Assembly (NCBI GenBank): GCA_903894975.1
Contig: CAITSE010000074.1
Coordinates: 1-60,058 of the forward strand
Direction of reading: 5' to 3'
From: an uncultured Lentisphaerota bacterium
GTDB taxonomy: Bacteria > Verrucomicrobiota > Lentisphaeria > Oligosphaerales > CAITYL01
DNA: 60,058 bases
The translations under genes and the position numbers were made by a program. Shown here piece by piece: positions 8,851 through 49,282 of this stretch (positions are counted from its first letter, which is position 1; every line of letters starts with the position of its first letter). Under the pieces are notes generated by a model, which ran no database searches, had not been told where the DNA came from, and saw nothing but the letters and a program-made list of their open reading frames with translations.

Positions 8851-9345
8851 TCATCCGTTGCCTTCCAGGCCTGAATCATTCATCACAAAGACCTCGGCCT
8901 GGGTAGGCGGGAAAATCGGACTGTAGCTCCCGATCACGCCGATCTTTTGCCGGGGCGGAGGACGCAGGGAAGGGATCAGGCACGGGCTGGCGGGGGGCTC
9001 GGGAGCCGGGAGTTCATGCCCGTTGGCGAAGGAGGCGGGAAGGCAGCGGTAGAGAGCGTCATCATGACGGAGCAGAAGCGCGGCGAGCCAGTGGCGCATG
9101 AAAACATAGAGACTGTCACGGCCAAAAGTGTAATTAAAGTCGGAAGCCTCGGGGCCGAGGAGGATCGCGTGGAAGCGCGAGTCGTGCTTGTAGCGATTTC
9201 TCGCCTTCCGCGCGAGTTGAATGACCCAGGATTTCGGCAGGCTGACGCCAAGCCAGCGGCTGGCTTCCTCCCAGACGACTTGGGCCACGACTTCGGGAAG
9301 AACCCCGGTCTCGTCTTCAAAGACTGTATTGTCGTCTGTATTCAT
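8851..9345 (-). CDS. hypothetical protein (164 aa)
   Basis: ORF with host-like GC, ATG at 9345 (MNTDDNTVFEDE...). It is tightly coupled to the downstream speE-like gene. No motif recognised. Confidence 0.5.
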   Translation of the reverse strand: MNTDDNTVFEDETGVLPEVVAQVVWEEASRWLGVSLPKSWVIQLARKARNRYKHDSRFHAILLGPEASDFNYTFGRDSLYVFMRHWLAALLLRHDDALYRCLPASFANGHELPAPEPPASPCLIPSLRPPPRQKIGVIGSYSPIFPPTQAEVFVMNDSGLEGNG

Positions 9346-12061: not shown

Positions 12062-12230
12062 CTACCCGGGATTATTCACACCCGGTTCGCATTCATTGAA
12101 CAGAAGACCGCAAAGATTAGGCAAGTGTCTGGATTGGAAAATCCTTCGTGCTCTTTGCGAGCTTCGGTTAAAAATGGGTTTGACAAAATCGGGGATCCAG
12201 ATGAATCTGTCCATGAATAGCTCAGACGAA
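12062..12230. repeat. Decayed miniature element: foldback 12096-12171 flanked by degenerate copies of the six-frame-stop motif
   Basis: TTGAACAGAAGACCGCAAAG (12096-12115) pairs with CTTTGCGAGCTTCGGTTAA (12153-12171). Flanks GGGATTATTCACAC (about 12068-12081) and CCATGAATAGCTCAG (12211-12225) resemble the motif ends seen at 48293-48435. Confidence 0.5.
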
Positions 12231-12897: not shown

Positions 12898-13158
12898 TTA
12901 GTTACAGCCAGGCAACGCGAGTTGCTGATCCAATTGAGACTCCGAGTGCTTCGGGGGGATGCTCAGCAGCATATGCACATGGTCGATGCATAGGTTGCCT
13001 TCTTCGATCTTGCACTCCTTGTGGGATGCCAACTCGTGGAAAACCGAGCCGAGGGACTTGCGCACCTGCCCGTACAGCGTCTTCCGGCGATACTTGGGGA
13101 TGAACACGACGTGGCACTTGCATTCCCACCGGGTGTGCGCTAGACTTTTTTCTCTCAT
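12898..13158 (-). mobile_element. tnpA: IS200/IS605-family TnpA (Y1/HUH transposase), 3'-truncated remnant
   Basis: MREKSLAHTRWECKCHVVFIPKYRRKTLYGQVRKSLGSVFHELASHKECKIEEGNLCIDHVHMLLSIPPKHS matches the IS200 TnpA N-terminal half, including the HxH motif (HVHML). Similarity is lost after ..SIPPKHSESQ, so about half the protein, including the catalytic Tyr region, is missing. A CCCCGG-CTAA-GCCGGGG hairpin lies at 13248-13264 on the 5' side. Confidence 0.8.
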
Positions 13159-13277: not shown

Positions 13278-13675
13278 CTTAAGGATTTGTGTTCCCCTAT
13301 ACCGATGCGGAGCATCCTTGGAGTGCCTGCGGCTTGACGCAGCTTTCCCCGGCGGCGGAGCCGCCTCTCCCACGCATGATCCAAACTCCCGCACCCAGAC
13401 AGAAGCGGAGAAATCAGACAAAGGCCGGTTCCACCGGCGGGAAAAAGCGGCGTCGAGCCGCCGGCACTCCAAAGCGGCGAGGACGCCGCAGTAAATACCC
13501 ATAACAATTTAAAGTATAATGCATAATGGTTCTTACGTTTACGCGCATGCCCGCCGGGGCTTCCGAGGAGAATGCGAGTTCGGCTTTATGTTCGCGAAAT
13601 TTCGCGTATTTAGCGGGCAAACCGGATTGGGGATCAAAAAGGATCTCCGTCTTGTTCATGAATAGATCAGGTTAG
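13278..13675. repeat. Composite structured repeat, copy 2: module B foldback (13278-13489, stem 13316-13365 / 13423-13473), AT-rich spacer, inverted module A (13531-13675) ending in the six-frame-stop motif
   Basis: Alignment by eye to 2755-3100. Module B has the same orientation and module A is the reverse complement. The motif GTTCATGAATAGATCAGGTTAG is at 13654-13675. Confidence 0.8.
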
Positions 13676-23587: not shown

Positions 23588-24625
23588 ATGACGCTCCAAA
23601 TCGGCATCATCGGCCTCGGCTTCATGGGCCGCTGCCATTTCGAAACCTGGGCGAAAGTTCGCGGCGCGCGCCTCGCCGCCGTCTGCGACATCGACCCGCG
23701 CAAGCGCGCCGGCGACTGGTCCGGCACCGCCGGCAATCTAGGCGGCAGCGCCGCCCGGACCGATCTTTCCGGCCTCCGGATCTATGCCCGGGCGGAGGAG
23801 ATGTTCGCGGATCCGGACCTGGATGTGGTGGACATCACCCTGCCCACATACCTGCACGCCGAGTATGCCGTGGCAGCCCTGCGCGCCGGCAAACATGTAA
23901 TCTGCGAGAAACCGATGGCCCGCACCTCGACCGAGGCGCGCCGGATGCAGGCGGCGGCGAAAGCGGCCAATCGCCAGCTCTGCGTGGCCCAGTGCATCCG
24001 CTTTTGGCCGGCCTATGCTGTCGCGGCGGAACAGGTCCGGACCGGCAAGCTCGGCCTCGTCGTCTCCGCTACCTTCCGTCGGGTGTCGCCGAAGCCGACT
24101 TGGAGCTGGAAAAACTGGCTGATGGACGAAACGAAAAGCGGGGGCTGCGTCCTCGACCTGCACATCCACGACGCCGATTTCGTCCTTTCCCTGTTCGGGC
24201 CGCCCCAGGCGGTGTCGAGCCAAGGCAGCGCCGCCGGCCCGGGCGGCGTCGACCATGTCATCACCTCCTACCGTTATGCCGATGGCAAACTGGTGACGGC
24301 CGAAGGCGCCTGGGAGCACACCGCGGGCTTCCCCTTCAGCATGACCTTCGTCCTCGCCGGCGAAAAGGCGAGCCTGACCCTGGCGGAAGACGGCAAGCTG
24401 CGGCGACATGACGCCAAGGGCACGAACGTCCTCCCGGTCCCGGAGGGCGACGGGTACCTGCACGAGCTGCAACATTTCGCCGGCTGCCTCGCCCGGAACC
24501 GGCCGTCCTCCGTGGTGCCGCCAGGCGCCGCGGCGGCCAGCGTGGCGCTCATCGCCGCCGAAATGACCTCCCTGAAACGCGGCCGCGAAGTCCGGATGAA
24601 ACTGTCGGATCCCAGGGGGTACTAG
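23588..24625 (+). CDS. Gfo/Idh/MocA family oxidoreductase
   Basis: MTLQIGIIGLGFMGRCH.. and CEKPMA motif. The TAG stop (24623-24625) lies inside the six-frame-stop motif. Confidence 0.85.
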   Translation: MTLQIGIIGLGFMGRCHFETWAKVRGARLAAVCDIDPRKRAGDWSGTAGNLGGSAARTDLSGLRIYARAEEMFADPDLDVVDITLPTYLHAEYAVAALRAGKHVICEKPMARTSTEARRMQAAAKAANRQLCVAQCIRFWPAYAVAAEQVRTGKLGLVVSATFRRVSPKPTWSWKNWLMDETKSGGCVLDLHIHDADFVLSLFGPPQAVSSQGSAAGPGGVDHVITSYRYADGKLVTAEGAWEHTAGFPFSMTFVLAGEKASLTLAEDGKLRRHDAKGTNVLPVPEGDGYLHELQHFAGCLARNRPSSVVPPGAAAASVALIAAEMTSLKRGREVRMKLSDPRGY

Positions 24626-24681
24626 CCTGAACTATTCATGAACCACTTCGTGAGCTTTGTGACCTTCTGTTCAACGAATTC
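24622..24681. repeat. Six-frame-stop motif (24622-24643) plus half foldback arm (24655-24681)
   Basis: CTAGCCTGAACTATTCATGAAC followed by CTTTGTGACCTTCTGTTCAACGAATTC. The last 18 nt are identical to 13680-13697. Confidence 0.8.
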
Positions 24682-47229: not shown

Positions 47230-48165
47230 TTACGGCGACGGTGCGGTGCCGAGGGCGGCGCGGAGGGCGGGGAGGGTTTGGAGTACGCGCGGGCCGGGCT
47301 TGAGCAGGAGGTTGGTGTCGAAGCCGCCGAACACCCGGTTGTCGCGCACGGCCCGGAGCTGGTTCCAGCCGGTGCGTTCGCGAAAGGCCGCGGTCTGGGA
47401 CGGTGCTTTGGCGGCGTCGTTCAGGCAGAGCACAACTTCGGGATCGCGGACCAGAACCCATTCGGCGGAGACCGCGGCGTAATCGCGGTCAAAATCATCG
47501 GCAAGATTGCGGCCGCCGGCCAGGCGCACAAGTTCAGCGACAAAAGAGCTTTTCCCGGCGGTCATCAGCGGGTCCGGCCAGATTTCAATGAAGACGCCTG
47601 GCGCGCGGCCGGACGCCGGCAACGCCCGGCGGCAACGGGCGAGTTCGGCGGTGAATTCCGCCGCCATTTTCGTCGCGGCGGTTTCACAACCGATAGCGCG
47701 CCCGACTTCCAGGATGGCGGTCGGGATCTCCGTCAGGGTGCGGCAGGAAATGATTTTGCGAGTGATGCCGAGTTCTTCCACGCGCCGATCCAGGGCGGGA
47801 TCGGAAGAGTCCACCTGCAGGACCAGGTCCGGCCGCACCGCCACCAGTTTTTCCAGGGACGGCCGACAGAAGTCGCCGACGACAGGTACGCGCCCAATGA
47901 TCTCCGGAGGATACTCGCAGACCCGGCTGCGTCCCGCCAGGCGATCGCCGGCGCCGAGGGCGCAGATGATTTCAGTCAGGTTGGGCGAGAGCGAGACAAT
48001 GCGCCGGGCCGGCGCCGGCGGAACGGAGTCCGCAGCGGCGATCCGTCCACAACCGGCGGCCAGCCACACGCCGGAAAAGAGCAGAAAACGGAAGAGCAAA
48101 AGCCACGCCGCCCCCGGGGAACGCTTCCCGGGCCGACAGCGATCAGGATCAAGTCGGTTACTCAT
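47230..48165 (-). CDS. ABC-transporter periplasmic binding lipoprotein, BtuF/siderophore-binding family
   Basis: Lipobox ..VWLAAGC.., then ..RRIVSLSPNLTEIICALGAGDRLAG.., ..PDLVL.. The ATG at 48165 was verified. The longer track ORF extends into the hairpin repeat. No partner permease or ATPase in the window. Confidence 0.75.
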   Translation of the reverse strand: MSNRLDPDRCRPGKRSPGAAWLLLFRFLLFSGVWLAAGCGRIAAADSVPPAPARRIVSLSPNLTEIICALGAGDRLAGRSRVCEYPPEIIGRVPVVGDFCRPSLEKLVAVRPDLVLQVDSSDPALDRRVEELGITRKIISCRTLTEIPTAILEVGRAIGCETAATKMAAEFTAELARCRRALPASGRAPGVFIEIWPDPLMTAGKSSFVAELVRLAGGRNLADDFDRDYAAVSAEWVLVRDPEVVLCLNDAAKAPSQTAAFRERTGWNQLRAVRDNRVFGGFDTNLLLKPGPRVLQTLPALRAALGTAPSP

Positions 48166-48177
48166 TGAATACGAACG

Positions 48178-48280
48178 TCCAACATTCAACATTGAACATC
48201 CAACATCGAATCCAGAGCGACCCTGTGAATTCATGCGGGATTCAAGGTTGAAGGTTGGATGTTGAATGTTCAATATTTGG
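48178..48280. repeat. Word-arm foldback hairpin (CAACAT words)
   Basis: TCCAACATTCAACATTGAACATCCAACATCGAATCC pairs imperfectly with GGATTCAAGGTTGAAGGTTGGATGTTGAATGTTCAATATTTGG. It starts 13 nt upstream of the BtuF-like start codon. Confidence 0.75.
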
Positions 48281-48292
48281 GAATCATTCATG

Positions 48293-48435
48293 CTAACCTG
48301 AATTATTCACGAACCTGCCGGAATAGCCACAAAAGATCACAAGGGTACACAAAAAAATGCGCCATCCACCTTTGTGTTTCTTTGTGCTCTTTTGTGGCAG
48401 AAACGGTTTTCATCTCATGAATAGATCAGGCTAAG
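48293..48435. mobile_element. 143-bp MITE-like element: 22-nt terminal inverted repeats (six-frame-stop motif) around a CACAAA-word foldback
   Basis: Left end CTAACCTGAATTATTCACGAAC (48293-48314). Right end CTCATGAATAGATCAGGCTAAG (48413-48435) is its imperfect reverse complement. The internal hairpin is GCCACAAAAGATCACAAGGGTACACAAA / TTTGTGTTTCTTTGTGCTCTTTTGTGGC (48326-48398). No coding capacity. Confidence 0.6.
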
Positions 48436-49282
48436 GCAGCCAGTGTTCCGCCGTGGCGGCCAGGGCTTCGGCCAGTTCCGGCAGGTGCGGCTCCCACTTC
48501 TTTTCCCACTCCAGCGACACCGGGCCGCGGAACTTTTCGCGGCGGAGCATGGCAAGCAACTCGGGAATGGGCACGTCGCCCCGGCCCGACAGGACGCCGG
48601 CGCGTTTCCCGTCGGGGCCGACGGCGCTGTCTTTGACGTGGAGATGCACGATGCTGCCGTCCTCCAGCAGGCCAAAGGTCTGGTCAAAGCGCTCGCCGGC
48701 CACGCACCAGGTGTGATGCGCATCCCAGACGATGGGGAAACTCCGTCCCCACAGGGTGGCCAGTTCCCGGCAGCGCGCGAGCGATGACATCCCGTCATGG
48801 GTCTCCACGGCCAACTCGCAGGCGAAGCCGTCCCGCGCCCGCATTTCCTGCCAGCGCTGCAGGGTTTCCGCCGCTTGTTTCAATTTGTCCGCGAGGTTGT
48901 TACACTGGAAATCGAAGCCGCCGAAAACCCGCAGGTACGGGCTGGCCAAACGGTCCGCCCAGCCGGCGAGGCGGCGGAAATCCTCCCAGTTCTGCGGCGT
49001 GCCGCCGACCAGGGCAAAGCTGGTATCGAGCGCCTTGATCCGGCCGGACGCCGCAAGTGCCGCGAACGCTTCCGGCTGTTCCCGATGATAAGCCTCCAGT
49101 CCCCCGGCCAGATCCAGCCCGCCGTTAAGCGTGCGCAGTTCCAGGTACGGAATGTGCCAACGGTCGGCGAGCGCCAGCAGTTCGGGCAGGGTGGCCTCCG
49201 GGATGCCCAGGGAAGAAAAGCACCAGACCAGCGTATCCCGGCGGAAATCCATGCCGGACTCGGAGCGGGTCTGTTTCATCAT
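48431..49282 (-). CDS. sugar phosphate isomerase/epimerase family protein (xylose-isomerase-like TIM barrel)
   Basis: ..IPYLELR.., ..ELAVETHD.., ..VHLHVKD.., ..VSLEWE.. Start at the MM pair 49282/49279 (the track start is TTG at 49372). The TAG stop lies inside the repeat motif. Confidence 0.75.
   Translation of the reverse strand: MMKQTRSESGMDFRRDTLVWCFSSLGIPEATLPELLALADRWHIPYLELRTLNGGLDLAGGLEAYHREQPEAFAALAASGRIKALDTSFALVGGTPQNWEDFRRLAGWADRLASPYLRVFGGFDFQCNNLADKLKQAAETLQRWQEMRARDGFACELAVETHDGMSSLARCRELATLWGRSFPIVWDAHHTWCVAGERFDQTFGLLEDGSIVHLHVKDSAVGPDGKRAGVLSGRGDVPIPELLAMLRREKFRGPVSLEWEKKWEPHLPELAEALAATAEHWLP

Follow-up and report, generated by a model that had tools for sequence, protein, structure and literature searches.

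Insertion sequences (ISs) of the IS1380 family, whose members include IS1380, ISEcp1, ISPme1 and IS1247, are represented by the protein models NF033539 and PF13701. Miniature non-autonomous elements, or MITEs, are familiar in bacteria from the Correia elements of Neisseria, RUP of Streptococcus pneumoniae and Nezha of cyanobacteria. Other abundant repeats, the REP/REPIN sequences associated with RAYT and the palindrome-associated transposable elements (PATEs), are to our knowledge Y1-dependent and carry neither terminal inverted repeats nor target duplications, and we know of no such features in IS200/IS605 elements either. For IS1247, a member of the IS1380 family, the length is 1,672 bp, the inverted repeats are of 16/13 and the direct repeat is of 5 bp (PMC3281130).

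The element considered here occupies positions 48293-48435 of the window, i.e., the whole stretch of 60,058 nucleotides analysed from an uncultured Lentisphaerota bacterium. These 143 bases are a genuine gene-less MITE bearing the ends of the IS1380 family and not those of IS200/IS605 elements. Reading along the plus strand, a CTAA tetranucleotide at 48293-48296 recurs identically at 48431-48434, and the two copies are the left and right target-site duplications. The left inverted repeat lies at 48297-48312 (CCTGAATTATTCACGA, 31.6 bits against a position weight matrix of the end motif), is of IRL type and has the AATT variant. Its right counterpart at 48415-48430 reads CCTGATCTATTCATGA on the minus strand (38.2 bits) and is of IRR type, with the ATCT variant; the two repeats match at 13 of 16 positions. 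The element proper, measured from inverted repeat to inverted repeat, spans 48297-48430 (134 bp). Inside it, a left linker (48313-48325), conserved in part among the family copies, joins the left repeat to a foldback of CACAAAG-like words, called b-type (48326-48398, arms 48326-48353 and 48371-48398), which is followed by the right linker (48399-48414, AGAAACGGTTTTCATC).

A sequence-only reading of this locus had described terminal inverted repeats of 22 nt around a 73-nt imperfect hairpin, with no identifiable target-site duplication. The hairpin was recovered at the same coordinates, 48326-48398, with 28-nt arms of 86% complementarity and a 17-nt loop. Inverted ends are indeed present, and the 19-nt end arms (48294-48312 and 48415-48433) are 79% complementary, but the four outermost bases form a direct repeat, CTAA/CTAA. 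Because these four bases are the target duplication, the 22-nt repeat breaks down into 4 plus 16 bases and a chance extension: the duplication said to be missing had been counted within the repeat. When folded as RNA, the whole element is predicted to form an end-to-end rod (-57.3 kcal/mol, z = -7.5, with 0 of 200 shuffles as good), while its DNA fold gives z = -4.1. The only coding capacity is that of a chance 53-aa ORF overlapping the element, and an Rfam search returned no family at the gathering score, the best match being a miRNA (E = 0.32).

An autonomous partner with the same kind of ends is found elsewhere in the genome. Contig C58 carries, at positions 153-1782, a 1,622-bp IS with perfect CCTGAATTATTCATGA inverted repeats at both ends and CTAG on both flanks, in which a convergent motif pair encloses an intact 446-aa ORF. 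This ORF aligns with positions 4-434 of 435 of PF13701 (481.6 bits), and a 387-aa excerpt of it scores 335 bits against NF033539, the model of IS1380 family transposases (cut-off 180). A shorter locus of 656 bp, C32:5803-6458, retains the first ~100 codons of a related transposase between CTAG/CTAG flanks and is an internally deleted IS derivative. Eighty relatives of the transposase, with ORFs of 441-447 aa, were fetched from other genomes. Identity reaches 72-77% in a Lentisphaerae MAG, 53-58% in Verrucomicrobiota, Kiritimatiellae, Victivallaceae, Auribacterota and Planctomycetota, and ~47% in Alphaproteobacteria. The same kind of inverted repeats accompanies 62 of the 80 and delimits ISs of 1,613-1,654 bp. 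Identical 4-bp flanks are present in 51 of these 62 full-length relatives (CTAG 33, TTAG 8, ATAG 3, CTAA 3, TTAA 2, ATAA 1 and CGTG 1). Since identical flanks include non-palindromic tetranucleotides, the four bases are directly repeated, as a target-site duplication is, and do not continue the inverted repeat. The transposase sharing the ends of the element, for which an intact IS200/IS605 tnpA had been put forward among the candidates, is an IS1380-family DDE gene, in C58 as in the 62 relatives, and not a Y1 gene.

The correspondence extends to the two ends individually. The left inverted repeat of the window element equals the repeats of the intact C58 IS at 15 of 16 positions, and its AATT variant lies upstream of the transposase gene in the relatives L021, L022, L034 and L038. 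The ATCT variant of the right repeat is the one found downstream of the transposase gene in IS relatives, and the right repeat is identical to the downstream repeat of L022 and L025. Only the ends are shared, the interior of the element having no similarity to the sequence beside the IS ends. The resident C58 IS carries AATT at both ends, as against AATT/ATCT in the window element, so the true parent may be a sister IS absent from the 89%-complete assembly.

The end motif is plentiful in this genome. In the window, the 19-mer TAGCCTGATCTATTCATGA and its variant occur 3-4 times (0.00 expected), and the 4.46-Mb draft genome, of 63% G+C, contains 147 copies of the motif at no more than 4 mismatches. 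With the position weight matrix at a threshold of at least 12 bits, about 270-275 copies are detected, compared with 4 in a reversed-sequence control. In 77 of 86 copies, TAG is preceded by C or T, and no base further out is conserved, a sharp onset that defines the motif as Y-T-A-R followed by CCTGA(W)(Y)TATTCATGA. When neighbouring copies lie at most 3 kb apart, 52 are arranged convergently, and the other three configurations account for 9, 9 and 6. The ends of small pairs are asymmetric, in that 26 of 38 combine an AATT-type with an ATCT-type end (18.5 expected, P = 0.008), the same asymmetry as between IRL and IRR in the IS relatives. Of the unpaired ends, 31 lie within 400 nt of a contig end on their element side. 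The further motif copies of the window, at 2756-2774 (39.5 bits), 13656-13674 (38.2 bits), 24623-24641 (38.7 bits) and 8867-8885 (13.1 bits), have no above-threshold convergent partner within 3 kb. At the other extreme are minimal 'elements' made of two overlapping inverted repeats alone, for example C20:6035-6066, C156:4226-4257, C205:8510-8530 and C225:10402-10422. Eight such pairs measure 32 nt from outer end to outer end and overlap at the palindromic TCATGA, and two measure 21 nt; these pairs might be footprints or the final products of deletion. Among relatives the motif is patchy: four genomes of the order have 67, 82, 58 and 83 near-exact copies and the remaining 37 have 0-14, a pattern that agrees with bursts of mobile-element activity and not with conservation of a signal. 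The count of 83 belongs to G023, a genome of ~2.0 Mb (68% complete) from the same order and a different family, which has the highest motif density among the 41 genomes searched.

Target preference follows from the bases outside the motif. In the window's genome, 11 of 14 YTAR/YTAR pairs have identical direct 4-mers, and all pairs longer than 40 bp yield 12 identical flanks where 3.7 are expected (P = 0.0002). The insertion target is YTAR, often a stop codon. A conserved target of 4-5 nt, which the sequence-only reading had suggested looking for at the left end, is indeed found in this tetranucleotide, duplicated here as CTAA. The TAG stop of the upstream gene (gene A, described below) occupies 48433-48431 on the minus strand, inside the right CTAA duplication; the insertion coincides precisely with this stop codon and leaves the gene unbroken. 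Across the genome, the duplication contains TAG or TAA at 134 inverted repeats, and at 56 of these the triplet is the stop of an open frame 100 codons or more in length, compared with 18 and 25 for the other two frames. In its simplest reading, this bias would arise because YTAR is rare outside stop codons at 63% G+C and because insertion regenerates the stop. A YTAR target would allow insertion at TAG and TAA stops, which are regenerated, and very short intergenic spaces would be filled without damage to genes.

The window element belongs to a family of ~15 copies identified by BLAST at 80-97% identity. In the family alignment, similarity is confined to the stretch bounded by the two inverted repeats, and the flanks are unrelated. 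Conservation is highest in the hairpin arms and the right linker, and the loops vary between copies; the linker AGAAACGGTTTTCATC is retained in nearly all of them, including some that have no inverted repeats. As had been anticipated for a transposable unit, both ends are shared by copies at different places in the genome: at least eight, at unrelated loci, have their parts in one common order, with a linker and an inverted repeat on either side of the foldback. Most of the family copies are old, at 80-89% identity with decayed duplications, which suggests that its activity may be past, and the duplication of the window copy is perfect. Clustering of the 70 nt inside each inverted repeat gave at least 12 end types with five or more copies, which correspond to at least six miniature families with common ends. 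One of these other families is represented in the window at 12062-12230 (plus strand), where a decayed second example had been proposed: its ends are of the same kind, and it belongs to the GAACAGAAG-hairpin family, a different one from that of the 143-base element. It reads CTAC + CCGGGATTATTCACAC ... CCATGAATAGCTCAGA + CGAA around a GAACAGAAG-type hairpin, with a right inverted repeat of 17.5 bits and a left one that matches the consensus at 13 of 16 positions.

Two alternative readings place a tyrosine transposase behind the element. The truncated IS200-type Y1 gene reported at 12898-13158 is there on the minus strand (positions 2-70 of 121 of PF01797; 85.9 bits against NF033573), and five full-length Y1_Tnp genes occur elsewhere in the genome, so that, given its strong hairpin, the element might be a PATE-like, hairpin-ended unit moved as a single strand by an IS200/IS605 Y1 transposase. 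This is scarcely credible for an element with 16-bp terminal inverted repeats and a 4-bp target duplication, in which the hairpin is central and not subterminal. Moreover, none of the five full-length Y1 genes is flanked by the end motif, and the one match to it within 800 nt of these genes, at ~300 nt from the gene on C48, scores a weak 15.3 bits, whereas the same ends flank IS1380-family DDE genes at 62 loci. The proposal of a Y1 enzyme as driver in trans is accordingly not supported. The other reading takes the foldback for the mobile part, a REP/REPIN-like doublet spread by a RAYT-type tyrosine transposase, and the outer repeats for incidental. Among the 556 long hairpins of the genome (stem score of at least 16), 57 have an inverted repeat within 90 nt and 499 have none, and CACAAAG-like word hairpins are found inside inverted-repeat pairs as well as without any inverted repeat. 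Word-repeat hairpins also occur across the order, the GTTGAAT type being present in several of its other genera, and one Y1 gene, on C38, has two flanking hairpins. Against this stand the joint conservation of inverted repeats, linkers and foldback across the family loci, a flanking duplication typical of DDE insertion and the lack of such hairpins around four of the five full-length Y1 genes, which make a RAYT-type origin very improbable.

The remaining alternatives concern whether the element moves, or is a unit, at all. The motif contains stop codons in several frames, the hairpin is very stable, and the excess of motifs that end a long frame exactly at their TAG or TAA would also be expected of a host-selected module, a six-frame-stop insulator coupled to a terminator or stabiliser hairpin after genes. 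Such a role sits poorly with a motif that forms the ends of transposase-bearing ISs in many phyla, is absent from most genomes of the same order and is also found at gene starts and inside other repeats; in addition, no T-tract follows the hairpin, and a scan for promoter and terminator consensus sequences predicted none within the element. We consider an immobile regulatory module to be most unlikely, and the six-frame-stop motif, being a target duplication plus a transposon end, is not to be annotated as a regulatory signal. It could also be argued that an independent hairpin came by chance to lie between two solo inverted repeats of unrelated origin, each left by its own insertion, since 171 motif copies have no convergent partner within 3 kb, several b-type family copies are without the left inverted repeat, and one repeat has been lost from the c-type neighbour. 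A coincidence of this kind would have to be repeated in the full order of parts shared by at least eight unrelated loci and to produce the exact CTAA/CTAA duplication around the window copy, and it can be given almost no weight.

By a wide measure, the most probable reading is of a MITE: a miniature element that derives from an IS1380-family insertion sequence and is not autonomous. It is non-coding, has inverted repeats and a duplication, exists in multiple copies with unrelated flanks and has a same-ended autonomous IS in its genome, which bears out the earlier description of it as a miniature non-autonomous transposable element. In the corresponding model, an IS1380-family DDE transposase supplied in trans would bind both inverted repeats; it could come from the 446-aa transposase of C58 or from a lost relative with AATT/ATCT ends. 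The enzyme would insert the 134-bp unit at a YTAR tetranucleotide and duplicate this target. In the present case, the target would have been TTAG, holding the TAG stop of the upstream isomerase gene, and its duplication, CTAA on the plus strand, would have kept the stop intact. The foldback would be a passenger, and inverted repeats, linkers and foldback would then have been amplified as one unit to ~15 copies. That the C58 transposase actually moves this element is a presumption, as would be any influence of the foldback on the gene downstream or on the 3' end of the upstream transcript.

Because the same hairpins are common without inverted repeats, the foldback in the element's family looks like co-amplified cargo. 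Many of the long hairpins consist of tandem 7-nt-like words, for example GTTGAAT, CACAAAG, GGATTTT and GAACAGAAG..TCGCAAAG. IS1380 members use surrogate inverted repeats and carry along adjacent foreign DNA (PMC9330008). By analogy, surrogate-repeat use could be a route by which foldbacks were captured and by which unrelated interiors came to share the same ends. A bolder view, which we regard as rather unlikely, is that the foldbacks are separate selfish palindromic modules, captured as MITE cargo and offering their loops as preferred landing sites, so that both systems jointly rebuild intergenic regions. If this were true, hairpin modules and IS1380-type elements would donate stop codons, start codons and transcript ends in Lentisphaerae and other PVC bacteria.

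The surroundings of the element may record more than one insertion. It lies in the spacer (48166-48430) between two minus-strand genes. Gene A (48431-49282) encodes a 283-aa sugar-phosphate isomerase/epimerase-like TIM-barrel protein (PF01261), and gene B (47230-48165) a 311-aa Peripla_BP_2 binding lipoprotein whose called ATG falls in c-type sequence. This c-type miniature element, of a different family, occupies 48140-48292 on the plus strand and contains a hairpin of GTTGAAT words (48173-48277). Of its inverted repeats, the left is missing and the right (TTGGGAATCATTCATG, 48277-48292) is degenerate; it aligns with complete two-repeat copies such as C178:12695-12858. The CTAA at 48293-48296 is at once the right flank of the c-type neighbour and the left duplication of the 143-base element, which suggests that two insertions followed one another into a single regenerated target. 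In gene B, the called ATG and the first 9 codons (MSNRLDPDR..., 48139-48165, minus strand) lie in sequence that every c-type element conserves. In complete c-type copies, the short frame exits through the inverted repeat and stops at the target TAG or TAA; at gene B the inverted repeat is gone and the frame runs on into the gene, so the element may have donated its start codon.

Direct evidence of movement was sought in filled and empty sites. The comparison of the two, advised at the outset, showed filled sites throughout: no empty-site allele was present in metagenome contigs (ENA, Logan and JGI), and all those reading into the intergenic region show element sequence. Contigs were reached in part through exact matches to the proteins of genes A and B, and samples in which the organism occurs include the ENA BUCK21-1 series, ERZ27313066, Logan ERR4195937 and JGI Ga0114951. 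A scan of JGI metagenomes with the last 25 nt of gene A found one contig, identical and filled, and two other young insertions, checked through their adjacent genes in other samples, were filled too. Young copies elsewhere in the genome include C137:7822-8064, C149:30865-31104, C178:12695-12858 and C198:4962-5183. The genomes compared, none of them from the same genus, contained no orthologous site, DNA matches in relatives being limited to the repeats. Gene A has no ortholog in the family, its nearest homolog having 73% identity and no synteny, and a search for presence or absence between G002 and G004, two relatives that share a genus with each other, found them too divergent, with genes at 69-81% identity and again no synteny. 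With no empty allele, the case for mobility is indirect but good and rests on the duplications, on nested insertions and on the patchy distribution. Nested insertions were searched for by joining the flanks of each pair and looking for the product in the genome. Four elements, at C70:1932-2157, C140:1721-1988, C113:3999-4220 and C225:10402-10422, lie within loops that belong to other hairpin repeats, and the repeats that host them have dozens of other copies that are uninterrupted. Flanking inverted repeats scoring at least 16 surround 3 of 52 pairs, compared with 1 of 260 control placements; C70 scores 14 and C225 scores 11. Two metagenome contigs, L014:3806-4300 and L012:1-445, join the element and its c-type neighbour to different outer flanks: L014 runs on into the flank of C349 in G000, and L012 has another gene upstream. 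They are read as chimeric assemblies, or as other copies or recombinants between copies, and not as empty sites. Several metagenome contigs stop or change partner inside the repeats, which probably break assemblies.

Altogether, the element represents a common type of mobile DNA, which this Lentisphaerae genome contains in unusual abundance and in which a large MITE expansion, with ~270 ends and at least six inner-sequence families, is tied to the IS1380 family. No description of IS1380-derived MITEs was found in the searchable literature. Likeness to the IS1380 family lies in 16-bp inverted repeats starting with CC, a 4-bp direct repeat and a 1.62-kb partner IS with one DDE ORF; unlike an IS of this family, the element is without a transposase and is 134 bp long. 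The present clade targets YTAR/NTAG tetranucleotides, mostly CTAG, and no statement of such a target for the named IS1380 members was found in the literature searched. A further parallel is offered by piggyBac, a eukaryotic superfamily with much larger enzymes and precise excision at TTAA. Both duplicate a 4-bp TA-centred target, TTAA in piggyBac and YTAR, which includes TTAA, here, a likeness that we would treat as resemblance only. The transposases of the IS1380 family and of the piggyBac superfamily are distantly related (PMC10140906).

Among bacterial MITEs, the element resembles Correia, RUP and Nezha in being short, gene-less and intergenic, with terminal inverted repeats, a short target duplication and a rod-like fold, and in reaching tens to hundreds of copies that have the ends alone in common with an autonomous IS. 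Those elements, however, are tied to other transposase families, such as IS630-type enzymes with a TA duplication, and the present system differs from them in displaying at least six inner-sequence families on one pair of ends. With REP/REPIN-RAYT repeats and PATEs, the element shares its nature as an abundant extragenic palindromic repeat, but unlike them it has both terminal inverted repeats and a target duplication, and it matches a DDE element.
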